A stretch of DNA of 45,728 bases from NCBI GenBank assembly GCA_038244685.1, contig JBBRTD010000005.1, positions 1-45,728 of the forward strand, read 5' to 3'. Within the stretch, counting starts at the first letter, position 1; every line of letters starts with the position of its first letter. The notes under the pieces were generated by a model. It was not told the DNA's origin. It did no database searches and worked only from the letters and a program-made list of their open reading frames with translations. The DNA comes from Minisyncoccia bacterium (lineage in GTDB: Bacteria; Patescibacteriota; Minisyncoccia; Phycocordibacterales; UBA9973). Positions 947-21,831 of the stretch are shown here, in pieces. The position numbers were made by a program, and so were the translations under genes.

Positions 947-1316
947 GGTTTGTATTGGATAAATGCGCTTTAAAGAAATTTGAAGTGAGGAAAGTCCGAA
1001 CACATATCTAAAAGTAATTTTAGAAAGTGTAGTGGGTAATACCCATCGGCGGCAACGCCCGAGGTGCGAGCAGAGACGCTATTAACCCGAAAGGGAATAG
1101 CATCCAATCAAATGGATGAGTCTTCATATAAATTTGCAAAAATGAAATTGAAGAGTGAAACGGCTAAATCCTTACATGTGTGCAAGATCGTGTCGAATAA
1201 TTTATGAAAATAAATTATTCGAAGAATCGCTTGAGCTTTACAGTAATGTATCGCCTAGATAAATATTTATCATCTGCTTTACAGCAGATACAGAATTCGG
1301 CTTATAGATACAAACC
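947..1316 (+). ncRNA. rnpB: RNase P RNA
   Basis: P4 signatures GAGGAAAGTCCGAAC and ACAGAATTCGGCTTA; P1 closing GGTTTGTAT/ATACAAACC; internal GTGAAACGGCTAAATC motif. Confidence 0.95.
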
Positions 1317-1322
1317 AAATAT

Positions 1323-13367: not shown

Positions 13368-13501
13368 CTTGCTAGATTTTAAATTTACTTTTATGATACA
13401 ACTTTACTAATTTGTGTCAATAATTATTATCTCAATAGAATGTTCATTACTTTGCATTTTTGATACATTTTTGGTACTATGGTCACATCTATGAAGAATA
13501 G

Positions 13502-13681
13502 ATACATTCCGTGGTAGCGAGCGGTGGAGTGAGTGTTGGGTAAAGGGACCCGACACGCAAGACCTTGAATATTTTGTAATCAAAATGTGAAAGGTATACA
13601 GCTCCTGTAAGGAGGTCGCCCGTAAGGCGAACGCTCATACAATGCTTAGTAATACGAAATACGTTCTGTTAAGAAATTTAT
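13502..13681 (+). ncRNA. structured element upstream of tRNA-Asn, bounded by a 17-bp direct repeat of the tRNA 5' end
   Basis: ATACATTCCGTGGTAGC at 13502 and 13682; GAGCG/CGCTC closing stem (13519-13636) enclosing four hairpins; promoter TTGCAT-17-TACTAT upstream. Confidence 0.6.
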
Positions 13682-13687
13682 ATACAT

Positions 13688-13762
13688 TCCGTGGTAGCTC
13701 AGCGGTAGAGCGGTCGCCTGTTAAGCGATTGGTCGTAGGTTCGATCCCTACCCACGGAGCCA
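13688..13762 (+). tRNA. tRNA-Asn (GTT)
   Basis: Acceptor TCCGTGG/CCACGGA, D-arm GCTC/GAGC, anticodon loop CTGTTAA, T-loop TTCGATC, encoded CCA. Confidence 0.98.
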
Positions 13763-13797
13763 AAACAAAAACCCCCAGAAATGGGGTGTTTTTATTT

Positions 13798-13934
13798 TGG
13801 CTCCGTGAGCAAAGTATCTGCATACTTTGCGTGGTAGGGATCGAAGCCAATTTCGTTTTTCGGTGCTAATCGAAACGAAAAGGTCTACTGGTCATGTAAT
13901 GACCGATATGTGTACTCACGTCTCTACCCACGGA
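13798..13934. repeat. tRNA-derived inverted/direct repeat element
   Basis: Antisense copy of tRNA 3' end (TGGCTCCGTG 13798-13807 plus GGTAGGGATCGAA 13833-13845) split by a hairpin; two more hairpins; direct copy CTACCCACGGA at 13924-13934. Confidence 0.75.
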
Positions 13935-13994
13935 AATTGCTTTTTATTAAAATTGTAATATGATTAACACATTAATAATCATTTAAAATATTGT

Positions 13995-14222
13995 ATGAAA
14001 AAAATTGCAGTTTTAAGTGTTCTAGGTTTTCTGTTATTAGGTTTATTTGGTTTTACAAATAATTCTGAAGCTCTTACTCGAGTCAAAGGTTATACCAAAA
14101 AAAGTGGTACTTATGTAATGCCTCATTATAAATCAACTTCTAATAAAGTTAAATACGACAATTATTCATCTAAAGGAAACTATAATCCATACACAGGGAA
14201 AAAGGGTTATAAGAAATGGTAA
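13995..14222 (+). CDS. small secreted basic protein
   Basis: Signal peptide; VKGYTKKSGTYVMPHYKS...GNYNPYTGKKG motif of a widespread uncharacterised family. Confidence 0.85.
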   Translation: MKKIAVLSVLGFLLLGLFGFTNNSEALTRVKGYTKKSGTYVMPHYKSTSNKVKYDNYSSKGNYNPYTGKKGYKKW

Positions 14223-14224
14223 AT

Positions 14225-14563
14225 ATGGAAAACCTTATAAAAAAAATATTAAAGTTTAGAGATGATAGAGATTGGAAACAATTTCACAACCCAAAGGATT
14301 GCGCCATATCTCTTTCTCTTGAGGCAGCAGAAGTTTTGGAACATTTTCAATGGAAGAATAAAGAGGAGATAGAAGAATATTTAAAAACACACAAAGAACA
14401 CATAGGTGAAGAATTAGCTGATGTTCTTTATTGGGTGCTTCTAATGAGTAATGATTTAGGTATAGATATAATTAAAGCTTCAGAAAAGAAATTAAAAAAG
14501 AATGGATTAAATTATCCAATTAGTAAATCTAAAGGTAAGCATACAAAATATAACCTTTTATAA
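14225..14563 (+). CDS. MazG-like nucleotide pyrophosphohydrolase (dCTP pyrophosphatase-like)
   Basis: RDWKQFHNPKD, EAAEVLEHFQW, EELADVL, NYP. Confidence 0.92.
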   Translation: MENLIKKILKFRDDRDWKQFHNPKDCAISLSLEAAEVLEHFQWKNKEEIEEYLKTHKEHIGEELADVLYWVLLMSNDLGIDIIKASEKKLKKNGLNYPISKSKGKHTKYNLL

Positions 14564-14683
14564 AATAATTCATTGTCAAAGTTAATTTATTATTCACGAA
14601 TTAAACGTTAAATATTTATATGGATATTTTTTTGTATCTTAGTAGAAGTTCGAACCTAGATAATTTTGGTATATAATATAAAA

Positions 14684-15208
14684 ATGAAAAAAGCTTTTGT
14701 TTGTCTCATCACTGGCCCAGCAGGGTCTGGTAAATCTTCGGTTTCAAAAGCATTGGCTGATAAATTTGAACGAAGTGCTGTAATTGAAGTAGATACTCTT
14801 CGTCATATGATAAAAGGTGGTTATGCAAGACCTTGGCCTCATAACGAGGAAGTGGATTTACAAGTTTCTCTCAGTATGAAAAATGCCTGTGATATGGCTA
14901 ATAATTTATTTGAAAAAGGTTTCAGTGTGTTTATTGATGACGTAATCGGGAGAAAGTTACTAGCACAATATTCAAATTCTTTCAAAGACAAAAACTTCAA
15001 AGCATTCTTACTAATGCCTTCATTAGAGTCTTTGTTGAAACGTTTTGACGATAGAGGGAACGACAAAGAACTTCGCGAGAGAACCATAGAACTTCATAAA
15101 AGATTTTCAGAAAAGAAAGATGAGTTAAATTGTCAAATTATAAATTCTAGCGACCAGACACTAGAGGAAACAGTAGTTGAGATTTATAAAGCAATAGTTT
15201 CATCATAG
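14684..15208 (+). CDS. P-loop kinase/phosphotransferase (AAA_33-like)
   Basis: ITGPAGSGKS Walker A, DTLR, LLKRFDDR lid; leaderless start 6 nt after TATAAT. Confidence 0.85.
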   Translation: MKKAFVCLITGPAGSGKSSVSKALADKFERSAVIEVDTLRHMIKGGYARPWPHNEEVDLQVSLSMKNACDMANNLFEKGFSVFIDDVIGRKLLAQYSNSFKDKNFKAFLLMPSLESLLKRFDDRGNDKELRERTIELHKRFSEKKDELNCQIINSSDQTLEETVVEIYKAIVSS

Positions 15209-15413
15209 GAAGTCCCGATAATAGCTTTCCTAACCTCGTCCCAAATTCGGAGTAAAATTTTCAACCATATTTAATAATGGTTATTTTTTGTATTCGAGAT
15301 AGATAAGAAATTGTGAAGTAATCATGATTATTATTGGTTAAATTACATATTAATTTTAAATTCATGTAGGATTATTACAATAAATATATTATAAATTAAT
15401 CTATTATTATTTT

Positions 15414-17099
15414 ATGTATAAATATTCTATTGGAATTTTAGTGTTCATGTACATTTTATTTTTTAATAATACTAATTTTGTTTTTTCATTAAGTGATAAT
15501 ATTGTTCTTAACCCATCTGTTGAATCAGCTACAGTCTCTAGTGCTTCACCAGACAACTGGTTACAAGATACCTGGGGAAATAATACACCTCAATTTATAT
15601 ATAAAAATACTGGCCATACATCAAATCATAGTTTATATATAAAAATGTCAGGGTGGAATACTGGTGATGCAAAGTGGTATTTCACACCTGTAAATGTGAT
15701 ACCAGATACAGATTACATTTACTCAGATTATTATATGTCAAACGTGAAGACAAGCATTGTTGCTATGAGTTTAGATGCACAAGGTACTCCTACTTATTTT
15801 GATGTTTCAACGGTTGTACCCGCTTCAAATTCTGTATGGAAACAAGCTACATATACATTCCGCACATTGCCAACCACTAAAACTATAACAATCTTTCATT
15901 TAATTCAGAAAAATGGATGGCTTCAGACTGATGATTATAATTTATCCCAACAAACAGGAACTGTAGTGTCTAGTTATGTGCCCAATAATTCAATGGAGAT
16001 AGTGTCACCAGTAGATTCTAGTCTGCCTAATCATTGGCTGCAGTCGTCATGGGGAGATAATACTCCATTATATGAATATGCAAATAATGGACATGATGGT
16101 TCAAGAAGTGTAAAACTTACAATGACAAACTATGTTTCTGGGGATGCTAAGTGGGATTACACTCCTCAAGTCCTTCCTCGTAGTAAAGATTACCAATTTA
16201 CTGCATGGTATAAAACTGACACCATCCCTCATGTAGTTGTACACTATATAAAAAATGACGGCACTGAAGATTTTTTTGGACTTTCCGATCCAGAACCAAT
16301 TGGAATTGACTGGCAGCAGTACAAAGGTGTATTTTCAGTTCCCCAAAACGTTAAAAAATTGTCAATATATTTTTTCCTCTCAAATAATGGCTTTTTACAA
16401 ACTGATAATTATCAAATTACCCCATATCAATATACTGGCTTTAATCGTCCTATCGTGACCTTGAGTTTTGATGATGGCTTTGAAAGCAATGTAAATACTG
16501 TATTACCAGTACTAGATAAATATGGATTCAAGGCTACTCATTGTTACGCTACTACATACTTAGAAGGACAGCCTACTCAAATTAGTAGTTTGTTAAAGAT
16601 TTCAAAGGATGGTCAGGAAACTTGCGATCATACTGTTAATCATTACGATTTGACGACTCAGTCTATATCAACAATTGATTACGAGTTATCACATTCTCAA
16701 AATTTCCTTGCAAATACAACCGGTCAACAAATTACAGATTTTGCAACTCCGTTCGGCTCCTATAATTTAAATGTAATTCAAGAAATAAAAAAATATTTTA
16801 AATCGCATCGTACTACTGATGAAGGTTATAATTCAAAAGATAATTTAAATCCGTATAAGATACTAGTACAGAATATGCAAGTTAACACCACTCTTGCACA
16901 ATTCCAACAATGGGTAAATAAAGCGAAGACAGATAATACTTGGCTTGTATTTCTTTATCATGCAGTTGATGTTCCTGGTGGTCTCGATCAATTTGATACG
17001 AAGAAAGCTGATTTTGATGCTCAGATGAAATGGTTAGCATCAACAGGTATTACAGTAAAACCGATTAATCAAGCTCTGGTTGAAGTGCAAGCACAGTAA
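15414..17099 (+). CDS. secreted polysaccharide deacetylase (CE4/NodB) with two N-terminal carbohydrate-binding-like repeats
   Basis: LSFDDG, DHTVNH, TPFG, FLYH motifs; duplicated ~160-aa modules (WLQxxWGxNTP, GDAKW, NGxLQTDxY). Confidence 0.9.
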   Translation: MYKYSIGILVFMYILFFNNTNFVFSLSDNIVLNPSVESATVSSASPDNWLQDTWGNNTPQFIYKNTGHTSNHSLYIKMSGWNTGDAKWYFTPVNVIPDTDYIYSDYYMSNVKTSIVAMSLDAQGTPTYFDVSTVVPASNSVWKQATYTFRTLPTTKTITIFHLIQKNGWLQTDDYNLSQQTGTVVSSYVPNNSMEIVSPVDSSLPNHWLQSSWGDNTPLYEYANNGHDGSRSVKLTMTNYVSGDAKWDYTPQVLPRSKDYQFTAWYKTDTIPHVVVHYIKNDGTEDFFGLSDPEPIGIDWQQYKGVFSVPQNVKKLSIYFFLSNNGFLQTDNYQITPYQYTGFNRPIVTLSFDDGFESNVNTVLPVLDKYGFKATHCYATTYLEGQPTQISSLLKISKDGQETCDHTVNHYDLTTQSISTIDYELSHSQNFLANTTGQQITDFATPFGSYNLNVIQEIKKYFKSHRTTDEGYNSKDNLNPYKILVQNMQVNTTLAQFQQWVNKAKTDNTWLVFLYHAVDVPGGLDQFDTKKADFDAQMKWLASTGITVKPINQALVEVQAQ

Positions 17100-17271
17100 T
17101 TATAATAGCAACAAAAATATCGAGAGCGGAATGAAATATTTCATTCCGCTTTTGTTTAGAAAGGTCTCCACTTCGCCCCACAAAAAAAGGGGGGTAAATA
17201 TTGACATAACACTATTTATATTATATTATCTCAACGAGAATAATGTTGTTCTCGTAAAAAAGGAGGTTATT

Positions 17272-17514
17272 ATGAAACTTTTTGATTCAGATTTTAATGA
17301 GGTTTGTGCAAAATGGGCCGTCAATCATCTTGTTCGAAATGGAATGACTCTTAAACCACTTGAGGTTAAACGAGAAATTCAAAATAGGGCAAAGGAATGG
17401 GGTGTTCCTGTGGAAAAAGTTGCGGAAGCACATAAGCTCATGTTTAATTATTTGGCAGGAATGAGCGATGCCAAAATTGATGATATTTTAAATTCAGATA
17501 AGGTTGAAAAGTAA
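17272..17514 (+). CDS. hypothetical protein (80 aa)
   Basis: AAGGAGG SD 5 nt upstream of ATG 17272; TTGACA-17-TATTAT promoter; the longer ORF-track start crosses a terminator. Confidence 0.75.
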   Translation: MKLFDSDFNEVCAKWAVNHLVRNGMTLKPLEVKREIQNRAKEWGVPVEKVAEAHKLMFNYLAGMSDAKIDDILNSDKVEK

Positions 17515-17757
17515 TTTTCAATAAAGGGGTAATTCCGGTCAGTTAAATTAGTTAGCCGATTTGTTTATAATACTAATCTGCATAAATAACTATATGACCC
17601 AAGAGAACAAGAACCCAACCTCTCTGGTAGAAGTTATTAAGTCCTGCAATTGTAAAAATTGTAGGACTTTTTATATAAAGGTTTCCACTTCGCCCCAGAG
17701 AGAGTTCAGAGATTTTAATCATGCTATATCATGATTGTTTTGGTGTATAATAAAATC

Positions 17758-18204
17758 ATGAAACATATTAACTTAAAAGGCTCTTGGGTTATTAAAGCTC
17801 CTATTGATCAAGTTTTTAAAATTATTAGTGATTTTGAAAATATGCCAAATAATTTTCCGACCGTTGCAGAGTCATTAGTTATTACAAAAAAAGATGGTAA
17901 TAAATTAGAAATCGATGCAAAAGCAAAGTCTTTCGGCATGGTATTTCCAGTTAAAATGAAAACAGAAATTATTCCAAGGGTTGGATATATTTCTGATAAT
18001 GAGAATTCAAAATTAGGTATATCTGGTCATGAAGAATTTTTAATGGAAGAAATAGGAGAAGGAACGAAGATTAATTATACTTACGAGGTTGATATTCATA
18101 ATAAATGGCTAAGGGTTATAGCTAAGCCGCTCATAGGTTGGTATTCAATGAAGTTTTGGGAAAAAGCTTTTATCGATAGATTAAAAGATATTATTAAAAA
18201 ATAA
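17758..18204 (+). CDS. SRPBCC/polyketide cyclase-like protein
   Basis: IKAPIDQVFKIISDFENMPNNFP, GTKINYTYE and C-terminal helix; leaderless start. Confidence 0.85.
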   Translation: MKHINLKGSWVIKAPIDQVFKIISDFENMPNNFPTVAESLVITKKDGNKLEIDAKAKSFGMVFPVKMKTEIIPRVGYISDNENSKLGISGHEEFLMEEIGEGTKINYTYEVDIHNKWLRVIAKPLIGWYSMKFWEKAFIDRLKDIIKK

Positions 18205-18318
18205 AGATTATTATTCAATTTTTCTTATAAAAGTTTTAACTTTATCTCAAGTTCGGAGCCCTAAAAATCACCTATATTTATTAGGTGATTTTTTCTTATT
18301 TGTTATAAATTCAAACCC

Positions 18319-18359
18319 ATTGACTTTACATATTGAAAAATGTAATGTGAAGAAAAAAT
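18319..18359 (+). promoter_or_regulatory. promoter duplicated at 20896-20936, with internal TTACA-N10-TGTAA operator-like repeat
   Basis: 38 of 41 nt identical between copies; TTGACT-17-TAATGT. Confidence 0.75.
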
Positions 18360-18386
18360 TCAATTCACAATTTAAAATTAAATCTT

Positions 18387-18779
18387 ATGAATAAGAATCA
18401 GGAACAGATAAAAGAAAAAATAAGAAAACTTTTATCGCAAGATTGTAATTTTGTAATAAAAGCAGTCCTTGAAAATCTTCCATGGCCCAAGGAAGTTGAT
18501 ACCGATAATAAATACTTTGTAAGGGAAGACGATGGCGACGGAGCAGTAAGAGGGATTAGTGTTCATTTTTTAGATAATGGAGATAGTATCATAGATCTCA
18601 GAGAATGCTGCATAGAATCTCATTTTGTTGAGTCTGAAATTTATTCAACACCACATGTTTACAGATTTCGTAACGTTTGTGGTGGCAGTATGAATCCATT
18701 GATTCAAAAAGCATTATTATTACTGGCTCTTACGATAGTAAATGACCCAGATGAAAAAATTAAAAATGAAACCTCTTAA
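18387..18779 (+). CDS. hypothetical protein, phage-like
   Basis: DDGDG...NGD...RFRxxxGGS...ALLLLA motif resembles uncharacterised phage proteins (from memory). Confidence 0.7.
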   Translation: MNKNQEQIKEKIRKLLSQDCNFVIKAVLENLPWPKEVDTDNKYFVREDDGDGAVRGISVHFLDNGDSIIDLRECCIESHFVESEIYSTPHVYRFRNVCGGSMNPLIQKALLLLALTIVNDPDEKIKNETS

Positions 18780-18794
18780 AATTTTTTAATTATT

Positions 18795-19049
18795 ATGGAA
18801 CAAACTAGATCTAAACAAGTTGATTTAGCAAAATCTATATTTTCTGGTATTGCTTTAGATAAGGATGGCTACTGCGGTTGTCCTAATTGCGGCTCCAGAG
18901 AGTTATTGCACGACGGGAATACTCTTGATAATGGTTCTTTGTATTGTTTGATATGCTATTTCTCAGTTTCTGGTAATGATCCTTACGAGATGGTTTCTCG
19001 TTGGAATTCAATAAACAGAGAATCATTCCAGTTGAAAATACTTTTTTAA
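18795..19049 (+). CDS. Lar (restriction alleviation)-like zinc-ribbon protein
   Basis: CPNCGS...CLIC...RWN pattern of the Lar_restr_allev family. Confidence 0.65.
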   Translation: MEQTRSKQVDLAKSIFSGIALDKDGYCGCPNCGSRELLHDGNTLDNGSLYCLICYFSVSGNDPYEMVSRWNSINRESFQLKILF

Positions 19050-19187
19050 TAAAAAGCCCTACCTCTCATTAAGATGTTAAGGGGCTTTTTTTGTATTTTT
19101 CCAAAAAAGTTCCAACCCCGTCCCAAATTTGGAGTAGACATATTCAGCTATTAACATTGAATCTTTTCTTTATGATATAATAATTTT

Positions 19188-19397
19188 ATGCAAAAAATAG
19201 CTACACGAATTTTTATTTATTCATCTATTGTTTTTGGAATTATTGGTATTTTAGTTGTTATAACTGGTTCAGGTCCCGATTCTCCCGATTCTAATATAAG
19301 CAAAATATTTATTAGACTTTTATTTGCAACTGTTTTTGTTATACTGCCTTCATTTGCATTGAGTATTGCCAGTAAGTATCTAAACGATAAATCTTAA
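19188..19397 (+). CDS. small 2-TM membrane protein
   Basis: Two hydrophobic helices; leaderless TGATATAAT promoter. Confidence 0.8.
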   Translation: MQKIATRIFIYSSIVFGIIGILVVITGSGPDSPDSNISKIFIRLLFATVFVILPSFALSIASKYLNDKS

Positions 19398-19466
19398 TCC
19401 TAAACAATAGTGTTTTTACTAATAATTTAAAATAGAATTAAAACTTAATTAAAAGTTTTAAATAGA

Positions 19467-19724
19467 TTATTTAGAGCGATGAATGCAGCCAGCCCAACAA
19501 CAAGGTCGACGCATTCCGCCCTTAATTTTCGATATGGTTTTCTTGATGCGTATATTCCTTGTCTCGGCTTTTTTGCCTGAAATAACCCAACATATCCATT
19601 CATTACGCGCAAGTGGGGTAATATCATTCCAGATAGCTTTTGCAGCAAGAGAAGTAGACATAGCCTTCCTTAAATCCTCTGGCATTTCATGTGGCAATTT
19701 GGAAATAGTCTCTTTTGGGGTCAT
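19467..19724 (-). CDS. YdeI/OmpD-associated (OmdA) family protein
   Basis: PEDL...W..ITPLARNEWICWV..GKK.ETR..RI, RRPCCWAGC.HR. Confidence 0.88.
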   Translation of the reverse strand: MTPKETISKLPHEMPEDLRKAMSTSLAAKAIWNDITPLARNEWICWVISGKKAETRNIRIKKTISKIKGGMRRPCCWAGCIHRSK

Positions 19725-19845
19725 AAGATTATTTTATCAAATTTTCTGAATACAGCAATTCGAACATTGTGATAATTATAGCTAGATTTTTAGATCTATT
19801 TTAATTATCTGTATAGATTATGCACTAAATGATATACTTAAGATT

Positions 19846-20337
19846 ATGAAAAAAATTGGAATTATAAATGAACATAATTTTTCTGAAGAGAAAATAAATG
19901 AACTTCCTGTTCGTAAAAAAGTTAGAGGTTTAATTTATAAGAACAATAATAATTTAGTTTGTATAGAAGAAAATGGTTATGGTATAAAACATCTATTAAA
20001 ACTTCCAGGGGGAAGCGTAGAAAAGAATGAGAGTAACATAAAGGCAATAAAGCGTGAAATTTTAGAAGAAACTGGATATGAAATAGACAATGTAAAATGT
20101 ATTGGTTTTATAGAAAATATTAGAAAAGAATACAAAATATACATAACATACTATGTGGCAAAAACGAAAGGCAAGCAGAAGAAATTAAAACTTACAGAGG
20201 AAGAACTGAAGGTTGAGACAAAGCCAATAGAAATAGAGGCAGAAATAGCAATGAAGAGAATTAAAGATGAATATAATAAAGCTCATAATGATAGCTCATT
20301 AAGAGATATTATGGTATTTGATGAATTAATTAAATAA
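19846..20337 (+). CDS. Nudix hydrolase
   Basis: LPGGSVEKNESNIKAIKREILEETGY Nudix box. Confidence 0.92.
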   Translation: MKKIGIINEHNFSEEKINELPVRKKVRGLIYKNNNNLVCIEENGYGIKHLLKLPGGSVEKNESNIKAIKREILEETGYEIDNVKCIGFIENIRKEYKIYITYYVAKTKGKQKKLKLTEEELKVETKPIEIEAEIAMKRIKDEYNKAHNDSSLRDIMVFDELIK

Positions 20338-20343
20338 ATCAAT

Positions 20344-20793
20344 ATGGATAATAAAAATATAATTATAAAAGTAAGAGGAGTTATTATATATGATAATAAA
20401 TTACTAATAGTAAAACACAAACAATCTAATTTTATGGCTCTTCCTGGGGGACATCTAGAATATGGGGAGGATGTAGTTGCTTGCTTAAAGAGAGAACTTG
20501 TTGAAGAGTTAGGAGTTTTACCTGAAATAGGAAGGTTGTTGTATATAAATACTTTTATGGATAATAAAAAAGATGAGTATGTGGAATTTTTCTTTGAGAT
20601 TAAAAATGGAGAAAATTATTTAAATATAGATGGATTAGAAAGAACTCATGCTCATGAATTATCTCAAATATTATGGGTTTCTCCTGATACGGACATTGAA
20701 TTTTTGCCAAAACAATTTGATGAAGATTTTAAAAATAATAAGATTTTTAAAGGAGAAACTAAATTTATTAATGAGTTAGATACTAATCAATAG
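20344..20793 (+). CDS. Nudix hydrolase
   Basis: LPGGHLEYGEDVVACLKRELVEELGV Nudix box. Confidence 0.92.
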   Translation: MDNKNIIIKVRGVIIYDNKLLIVKHKQSNFMALPGGHLEYGEDVVACLKRELVEELGVLPEIGRLLYINTFMDNKKDEYVEFFFEIKNGENYLNIDGLERTHAHELSQILWVSPDTDIEFLPKQFDEDFKNNKIFKGETKFINELDTNQ

Positions 20794-20962
20794 AGTCAAA
20801 ATATATGCATGCTTTGCTTGGTATATTTTTAGAAATATTTTAACTTAAGGTTAAGGTCTGTCATTATAGATAGGCCTTTTGTAAAATTTAAGTCTATTGA
20901 CTTTACAAATTGAAAAATGTAATGTATAGAAAAAATAGTACTAATTATTAAAAATAGAAAAG

Positions 20963-21367
20963 ATGAGGCAGTTTGAAAAAGTTTTAGGAATTGGAATTTT
21001 TGCGTTATTGATATACTCAATAATTAGCATAATAATTAATTTTTTTGATACGAGATTTTACTCGCTAATCCCAAATATTACTATCTTGCTTATAGCTGGA
21101 TTATTATCAGGCTTTATGGGATCCTTTGCTCCTTTCTGGAACACAGGCAAGTATCTTAAGATTAATAAAGTGGAAATAATTGTTGCTTATGAAGTTAAGT
21201 ATAAAGTTAAATTTATTTGCCACTTTTTAGGGTATTTAGGGGTAATTTGTATACTTAAGTCAAAGTTAATTTTTGATTCTTTCTGGTGGATTGGAGTATT
21301 TATAACTATATGGTATTTAATATATCTTTATATAATTATATTTAAACGACCGCTAAAAGAAGAATAA
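20963..21367 (+). CDS. hypothetical 4-TM membrane protein
   Basis: Four hydrophobic segments; own promoter at 20896. Confidence 0.75.
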   Translation: MRQFEKVLGIGIFALLIYSIISIIINFFDTRFYSLIPNITILLIAGLLSGFMGSFAPFWNTGKYLKINKVEIIVAYEVKYKVKFICHFLGYLGVICILKSKLIFDSFWWIGVFITIWYLIYLYIIIFKRPLKEE

Positions 21368-21390
21368 ATTTTTAATCTAATAACTAAAAG

Positions 21391-21831
21391 ATGAGAAAAA
21401 TTTTTTTATTAAGACATGGAGACTATGAAGGATCCGTGTCTGATCCGGTGTTATCGGATACAGGGAAGCAACAATCGCTATCGTTAGCTAATAAAATTAA
21501 GTTGAACTTAAATGGCTATACTGGTGATGTAACAATTTGGACATCTACTGCAAACAGAGCAAAAGGGATGGCTCAGATTATAAAGCAGGAGCTTCAACTG
21601 GCTTCATTAATTGAGATAGAAAATCTCTGGAGTGACAGCCGTCATGAATACCACTTTCGCTGGTTGAAAGAGGAACTTAATGGTTTTAAGGGAGAAGTTT
21701 TGATAATTATTTCACATTTGGAATATGTCAGAGATTTTCCAGAAATGTTAGGTTTCCCTGGAAATAAAGCAGGTTATGCTCAGGGGGTATTGATAGAAGA
21801 AGGGAGGTGTAATAATTTCAATTTTAATTAA
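21391..21831 (+). CDS. histidine phosphatase superfamily (SixA-like)
   Basis: LLRHG, LSDTGKQQ, TSTANRA, ISH motifs. Confidence 0.85.
   Translation: MRKIFLLRHGDYEGSVSDPVLSDTGKQQSLSLANKIKLNLNGYTGDVTIWTSTANRAKGMAQIIKQELQLASLIEIENLWSDSRHEYHFRWLKEELNGFKGEVLIIISHLEYVRDFPEMLGFPGNKAGYAQGVLIEEGRCNNFNFN

Follow-up and report, generated by a model that had tools for sequence, protein, structure and literature searches.

Positions 13502-13681 of the window, by which we mean the whole stretch of 45,728 nucleotides analyzed here, are an A-type member of an uncatalogued family of ~85-89-nt three-hairpin modules that is found mainly in a single order of Paceibacteria (CPR/Patescibacteria). The element is genuine and amounts to more than a single odd leader: the family copies tRNA ends in both senses. 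Its existence, its fold, its arms, its presence or absence at the site, and its restricted taxonomic range were established directly. As for the nature of the copy found here, we favor, at roughly an even chance, a selfish, fold-dependent insertion carried in the pre-tRNA-Asn leader. The window corresponds to contig C5 of a genome of 26 contigs and 850 kb that is 96.6% complete.

The tRNA-Asn(GTT) gene at 13688-13762 was the sole tRNA called at the locus by ARAGORN and the Rfam tRNA model. In front of it, the original prediction had described a 17-bp direct repeat whose first copy continues as a degenerate D-arm, a GAGCG/CGCTC stem closing four hairpins, and a GC-rich element on an AT background. 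This description was confirmed as a whole, with the repeat, the stem, and the hairpins all present and non-random. The repeat ATACATTCCGTGGTAGC is exact at 13502-13518 and 13682-13698, the two copies lying 180 nt apart. When up to three mismatches were allowed, a search for which 0.06 matches were expected by chance returned three, namely the two exact copies and a 3-mismatch site within the downstream unit at 13800-13935. Similarity around the 17-mer extends weakly for 12 nt further upstream (29 nt, 83% identity), and the D-arm remnant behind the first copy reads GAGCGGTGGAG, compared with TCAGCGGTAGAG in the intact tRNA-Asn. The MFE fold of 13502-13690 reproduced the closing stem and all four hairpins (-57.9 kcal/mol, z = -3.98; 0/200 shuffles as low), and the G+C content of the core is 0.44, compared with 0.26-0.39 in 1-kb bins of the window.

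The unit is ordered as a sense arm, the core, an anticodon-arm remnant, an antisense arm, and a spacer, after which comes the real tRNA (Table 1). The original prediction had missed the anticodon-arm remnant and the antisense copy of the 5' end, as well as the large family and its mirror-image 3' relative. In the relative L086, the anticodon-arm remnant still has a 7-nt loop and is followed by ATTG. In tRNA-Asn-linked copies, the acceptor 5' strand and D-arm are copied ahead of the core, in intact or decaying form, and the junction falls right after GGTAGAG. Hairpins of different sequence occupy the position of the leader hairpin in four relatives (L028, L029, L030, and L033). The CGCTC within the antisense arm is the 3' strand of the closing stem, and the GAGCG/CGCTC stem is a portion of the pairing between the sense and antisense arms. 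Since the core lies between these two arms, the unit folds back into a long stem with the core at its tip. In 12 units of this kind, the antisense arm reached a mean z of 1.9 (z >= 2.5 in 5/12), and the same segment showed no likeness to the sense 3' half of the tRNA (mean z 0.18 in these 12 units). We thus rejected a decayed 3' half of a duplicated tRNA, and the antisense 5'-end copy (z 2.5 in the window) fits instead. Neither ARAGORN nor the Rfam tRNA model found a cloverleaf in the element, which holds copies of the acceptor 5' strand, D-arm, and anticodon arm and has no T-arm and no 3' strand. A related arrangement was seen at G000:C1:132345-132433, directly upstream of tRNA-Met (132434), where a partial copy of the 5' two-thirds of that tRNA carries a 13-nt insert after the D-stem. 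This insert occupies the position of the core in the tRNA-Asn unit, and the copy looks like a decayed 5'-type unit whose core was deleted.

Table 1. Features of the A-type unit, the tRNA-Asn gene, and the B-type unit in the window
Feature	Position	Strand	Basis or remark
Putative promoter	13452-13480	+	TTGCAT (13452-13457), 17-nt spacer, TGGTACTAT (13472-13480); extended -10 type; by eye
Leader hairpin ATCTAT/ATAGAT, probable transcript 5' end	13487-13503	+	Predicted fold
Sense arm: 6 nt of leader, acceptor 5' strand, and degenerate D-arm of tRNA-Asn	13502-13529	+	Sequence comparison; first 17 nt are the exact direct repeat
Conserved three-hairpin core, A type	13527-13615	+	Model R1: 90.3 bits, E 3e-20
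Core junctions: GAGUGAG before Pa, GCAAG between Pa and Pb, AUACAG between Pb and Pc	within 13527-13615	+	
Hairpin Pa	13533-13556	+	
Hairpin Pb, with 2x2 GA/GA internal loop	13562-13595	+	
Hairpin Pc, loop UGUAA	13602-13614	+	
Hairpin TCGCC-CGTAA-GGCGA, remnant of tRNA-Asn anticodon arm	13616-13630	+	Compared with GTCGCCTGTTAAGCGA of the tRNA; loop one base shorter
Degenerate antisense copy of tRNA-Asn 5' end	13633-13660	+	Local alignment to reverse complement of 13682-13713, z 2.5
Spacer, weak copy of upstream leader	13661-13681	+	Repeat family D2: 29 nt, 83% identity
Second 17-nt repeat copy running into intact tRNA-Asn(GTT)	13682-13762	+	tRNA at 13688-13762
Bidirectional terminator hairpin	13763-13807	.	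Stem lengthened by inverted copy of tRNA 3' end (inverted repeat I1)
B-type unit, mirror image of A unit	13800-13935	+	R1 16 bits (+ strand); covariation on A2
Antisense of acceptor 3' strand	13800-13809		B unit
First hairpin	13810-13829		B unit
Antisense of T-stem and T-loop	13833-13845		B unit
Second hairpin	13846-13884		B unit
Hairpin with UGUAA loop	13890-13904		B unit
3-bp hairpin	13910-13919		B unit
Sense copy of tRNA 3' end	13921-13935		B unit; 13/15 nt repeated

Conservation of the fold was assessed on an alignment of 84 core copies (A1), with covariation counted on the three-hairpin structure. In this alignment, 94.4% of cells were paired and 19 of the 25 pairs had changed on both sides, with 371 cells showing such changes, while none of 500 shuffles was as good and slid controls reached at most 56.5% paired cells. 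Because the search pattern prescribed the five outer pairs of Pb and two junction strings, their invariance is not evidence. About 30 unpaired bases are invariant in A1, at positions of which 23 were fixed by the same pattern. G-U pairs were frequent (at pair 45-62, AU 34 and GU 31), indicating that the tRNA-sense strand is the folded strand.

A BLAST comparison of the region with 61 relatives revealed multiple copies of the core elsewhere, and with 13519-13640 as the query (E <= 0.001) the core was found in 64/93 genomes of the genus, at up to 7 per genome. R1, a covariance model built from the core family, matched 77 of the 151 genomes sampled from the window's order (0-28 copies each) and 1/150 genomes in the rest of an even sample of the phylum. 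The exact core pattern occurs at no fewer than 122 loci in a collection of species-representative genomes; among the pattern matches listed, nearly all lie in assemblies of Parcubacteria, Paceibacteria, and Zambryski-, Taylor-, Nomura-, Kaiser-, and Yonath-bacteria. Searches of Rfam 15 gave no match in 13502-13680 at gathering score, and the sole row at E <= 10 in this segment was a chance-level isrA match (9.8). No match fell on the element at E <= 0.1 in 19 relatives' loci either, in agreement with the original view of an unannotated structured element. Likewise, the portion of the literature covered by our full-text searches held nothing on the core family.

Known structured RNAs do occur in the tRNA genes of these organisms. 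Several congeners have a group I intron in the anticodon loop of tRNA-Asn (L030 1697-1943; also L034 1980-2249), the two introns scoring 73.7 and 58.8 bits with RF00028. Split tRNA-Asn genes were also seen in G015:C16, G022:C29, and G025:C1, and the L034 intron contains, by eye, an HNH-type endonuclease-like ORF. Like these introns, the element is a structured RNA at tRNA genes of the same genomes, and by eye some short strings of the core resemble intron strings in the same order. Such a likeness, together with the confirmed introns in relatives' tRNA-Asn, would fit decayed debris, that is, a tandem tRNA-Asn duplicate with a broken group I intron that has neither function nor mobility at present. 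However, the likeness was unsupported by either model, as RF00028 has no match on the element and R1 has none on the L030 and L034 introns at E <= 10, and an intron remnant was thus rejected. The element also differs from the relatives' introns in lacking their P7 and J8/7 strings and in leaving the working tRNA uninterrupted. Moreover, the segment behind the core is an antisense of the 5' end rather than a decayed 3' half, and compensatory covariation is strong across the order. Taken together, the covariation, the comparison of R1 with the introns, and the antisense arm largely refute the debris explanation, which we regard as barely credible.

The mirror-image B units sit directly 3' of many different tRNAs, behind the terminator, and copies were found in 44/93 genomes of the genus. 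Each begins with an antisense of the acceptor 3' strand, followed by a hairpin, an antisense of the T-stem and T-loop, two to three hairpins, and the final 14-23 nt of the tRNA repeated in sense orientation; a 12-bp helix copied from the acceptor and T stems closes the unit. R1 matched 27/29 B loci (L057-L085) on the same strand and mostly at full length, demonstrating that the A and B cores are homologous. In an alignment of 23 B units (A2), 88% of cells were paired and 39/44 pairs were compensatory (0/500 shuffles as good), and the covariation takes in the helix formed by the two tRNA-derived arms. G-U cells are too few in B units to tell the strand, so the R1 matches were used to assign it; 13800-13935 gives z -4.5 when its minus strand is folded.

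In the window's genome, B units follow tmRNA and the tRNAs for Leu(GAG), His, Gln(CTG), Gly(TCC), Trp, and Asn. Their arms copy the end of whichever tRNA or tmRNA precedes them. Furthermore, the antisense T-loop matches the neighbor's own T-loop variant, most clearly at tRNA-His, and no segment within the unit is available to pair with it. At tRNA-Gly, the sense copy extends 6 nt beyond the tRNA end, and the unit copies within this genome have diverged from one another. The B unit after tRNA-Trp (G000:C2:26212-26420) finishes with the sense copy of the tRNA-Trp tail present twice in a row, as though insertion had happened twice. In addition, G000:C14 (13.5 kb) carries ten successive tRNA genes and a second, different tmRNA gene, and might represent phage-like or foreign DNA binned with this genome.

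The A unit is an insertion between the tRNA promoter and the tRNA. Among 13 tRNA-Asn loci in relatives, three have an A unit, one has only a remnant repeat, and nine have the promoter-like region directly before the tRNA. This comparison of occupied and empty sites upheld the original proposal of a mini insertion tied to the 5' end of the tRNA. For the B unit, the flank that follows the right repeat in G035 directly follows the tRNA in G031, which defines the insert as the terminator, antisense arm, core, and 14-nt repeat. Genome-wide, a tRNA or tmRNA gene was found within ~300 nt of 32/124 copies and none for the other 92, and 32 of the 35 nearby genes were co-oriented with the core. The orientations of flanking ORFs were near-even (23, 18, 18, and 18 for the four arrangements with ORFs on both sides; 110 copies), which argues against a leader of protein genes. 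A riboswitch or other cis-regulatory leader, which would hold a constant, co-oriented position upstream of particular genes, was rejected.

The 14 nt upstream of the core were clearly repeated downstream in only 9/122 copies (control 3), so a regular target duplication is not a trait of the family. High-copy genomes also have cores inside a terminator hairpin (20-nt repeat), palindromic repeats, and larger composite repeats, and nested and truncated copies were found as well. L231, L232 (G364), L186, and L200 have their cores within the loop of palindromes of the GTCATTCCCGCG...CGCGGGAATGAC type. A MITE- or REP-type DNA repeat was rejected given this low 14-mer count and arms that are local tRNA copies rather than a shared terminal repeat.

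A direct repeat of the tRNA end borders the element on both sides, as at the borders of an integrative island, and tRNA and tmRNA genes are classic integrase targets. The units could hence be integrase scars, i.e., terminal remnants of larger islands or phages that had entered tRNA stem-loops and were later deleted, leaving duplicated tRNA or tmRNA ends around the inserts; the 3' repeats, which begin in the T-loop, would also suit such an origin. We nevertheless hold this to be very unlikely, because the same small size and architecture recur at dozens of loci, the units have no integrase next to them, and antisense arms and an RNA-type covarying core are not expected of scars. The 163 nt between the 17-nt repeats contain no ORF above chance and no integrase gene or cargo. 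The single tyrosine recombinase of the genome is Xer-like (best matches to XerD/XerC/XerA models), and this genome has no serine recombinase. No further copies of the tRNA-Asn tail were found in the window, and Pfam assigned the downstream genes to ordinary small housekeeping-type families, so a prophage or island downstream of the tRNA was rejected. Phage carriage was rejected too: the A pattern had no match in 2.9 million viral contigs, and the two B-pattern viral matches are coding sequence without hairpins. Downstream of the tRNA, a same-strand run of small genes (13995-21831) encodes a MazG-like protein, a P-loop kinase with zeta-toxin-like matches, several NUDIX proteins, and a histidine phosphatase; it is lower in G+C than the DNA upstream of the tRNA and has no tRNA-tail repeat at its borders.

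Retro-mobility of a SINE-like kind was examined through reverse transcriptases and rejected. No RVT_1 domain was found in the window's genome, and presence of the family was not associated with the enzyme, which occurred in 34/77 genomes with the family compared with 27/74 without (p 0.41; order sample). Among genomes with five copies or more, 8/24 encode a reverse transcriptase. Homology-driven exchange through the duplicated tRNA end and template switching at the hairpins are possibilities for the spread of the units.

The original prediction also placed a single promoter ahead of both the element and the tRNA and proposed that the two are co-transcribed. The promoter boxes can be recognized by eye (Table 1), although a consensus scan does not list them because the -35 matches 3/6. 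Relatives have similar sequence ahead of tRNA-Asn whether or not they carry the element. The scan found no promoter-like site and no terminator between the element and the tRNA, and the only terminator that it reported is the bidirectional one after the tRNA. The position between promoter-like sequence and tRNA is thus consistent with co-transcription. In four metatranscriptome assemblies, low-depth contigs of relatives (depth 2-6) contained the A core in two runs and the B core in one, and one of these contigs bridges the A core, spacer, and tRNA-Asn of a relative. Being contigs from RNA libraries that carry no strand information and in which DNA carry-over is possible, they offer a weak hint of transcription.

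If transcribed, the core might act as a small ribozyme, self-cleaving or ligating, or be a stand-alone stable small RNA whose tRNA-like ends would be trimmed by RNase P and 3'-end enzymes. The metatranscriptome contigs holding relatives' cores would agree with such a role, as would the size (~85 nt), the junction of several helices, and the roughly 30 unpaired bases that do not vary (23 of these positions fixed by the search pattern). Yet the ribozyme models of Rfam gave no match to the element, even at E <= 10, and a cleavage site is not readable from the sequence. The copies are dispersed independently of flanking ORF orientation, as might be expected of a stand-alone RNA, and B units close with their 12-bp copy of the acceptor and T stems. 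A tRNA-type substrate, however, needs a T-arm and a 3' acceptor strand, and the A unit, lacking both, would not be one by itself. We therefore consider a ribozyme or small RNA quite unlikely.

In MFE folds of the precursor, the arms swap onto the real tRNA ends instead of pairing with each other. The order of transcription would favor harmless self-pairing of the arms in the A unit, and B units, lying behind a strong terminator, would rarely be transcribed with the tRNA. The layout of sense, antisense, and real copies permits either pairing and brings up a switch in tRNA maturation that is useful to the host: with the antisense arm on its own sense arm, the tRNA would be free, whereas with the antisense arm on the real tRNA end, the tRNA would be misfolded. 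The swapped pairings of the precursor folds are those that such a switch would use, and the B antisense T-loop tracks the neighbor's variant despite having no partner within the unit, with tRNA-His as the clearest case. Invariant junction bases, covarying stems, the co-orientation of tRNAs (32/35), and the retention of units in very small genomes would also be understandable if the units served their host. The distribution of the family points the other way, as the element is absent from 9/13 tRNA-Asn loci and from 74/151 genomes of the order, copy number ranges from 0 to 28, and 92/124 copies have no tRNA within ~300 nt. The position of B units behind the terminator also speaks against a role in maturation. 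A maturation switch is thus unlikely in our opinion, and it is similarly doubtful that the balance would be set by a ligand or protein bound to the conserved core, tuning the supply of particular tRNAs and tmRNA.

For the selfish insertion that we favor, we infer transcription, release by RNase P, and selfish spread. The A unit would be transcribed as a section of the pre-tRNA-Asn leader and would fold first, so that the antisense arm would be taken up by its own sense arm and the tRNA left free to fold. Judging from its position, the unit may then be removed when RNase P makes the mature 5' end of the tRNA. An element of this kind would depend on its RNA (or single-strand) fold and would survive harmlessly at tRNA and tmRNA gene ends. 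Several observations weigh against this reading. No mobility enzyme is at hand, the genome having one Xer-like gene and neither RVT_1 nor a serine recombinase, and reverse transcriptase does not track the family. Target duplications are clear in few copies (9/122; control 3), and the diverged copies of the window's genome give no sign of a recent burst. The evidence for transcription consists of depth 2-6 contigs without strand information, and the precursor may misfold through arms that swap onto the real tRNA ends. Finally, invariant junctions and compensatory changes across an order with genomes of ~0.5-1 Mb would also fit a host function. Overall, the interpretation given in the original prediction was partly supported: the tRNA-linked insertion stands, while co-transcription has the position of the unit and one relative's contig in its favor. 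Elsewhere in the window, an RNase P RNA (bacterial class A, 110.4 bits) lies at 947-1320 (+), ~570 nt downstream of the 3' end of the 16S rRNA (16S at 1-375) on the same strand, an unusual neighborhood.

A broader interpretation would treat A and B units as tRNA-end-guided RNA elements, in which a conserved catalytic or protein-binding core is joined to programmable arms copying, in sense and antisense, the terminus of one particular tRNA or tmRNA and through them either directs its own insertion beside that gene or switches the maturation of that tRNA on and off; we regard this as improbable. In CPR bacteria, genomes are tiny and non-coding DNA is very scarce, and many genomes of this order nonetheless retain up to 28 copies of an uncatalogued element with an RNA-type fold. 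The core would represent a new class if it proved to be a ribozyme or a mobile RNA bearing a guide, and the unit would add a new layer of tRNA control if it gated tRNA maturation. Even a plain reading explains the odd pseudo-tRNA fragments around tRNA genes, and a model such as R1 lets annotators mask the units. Within the literature reached by full-text searches, the copying of neighboring tRNA or tmRNA ends in both sense and antisense had no counterpart.

Several known systems share some of these traits. Mimics of tRNA with only acceptor and T arms include the tRNA-like domain of tmRNA and viral tRNA-like structures, and B units resemble them in that their closing helix is copied from the acceptor and T stems of a tRNA. 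They differ in always copying the neighboring gene, in replacing the T-loop with a ~80-nt core, and in having no match in the Rfam tRNA clan. REP/BIME sequences, Rickettsia palindromic elements, and MITEs are structured interspersed repeats or miniature mobile elements of bacteria that, like the present family (0-28 copies per genome), are short, multi-copy, and hairpin-rich and form nested or composite copies. In contrast to these repeats, the family has invariant junctions, compensatory pairs across an order, and co-oriented tRNAs (32/35), without a fixed terminal repeat or a target duplication of fixed length, and we know of no partner transposase for it. Integrative islands at tRNA and tmRNA genes that leave duplicated gene ends are exemplified by the ssrA-targeted islands of Dehalococcoides (PMC3146451). 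Like integrative islands in general, our units have a repeated tRNA or tmRNA end at their borders, leave the working gene intact, use both kinds of genes as targets, and vary in their occupancy of a given site among relatives. Compared with such islands, our units measure only ~130-180 nt, carry no cargo and no integrase, and exist in a 5'-end version; they also add an antisense copy of the tRNA end to a core that is conserved as an RNA-type fold.
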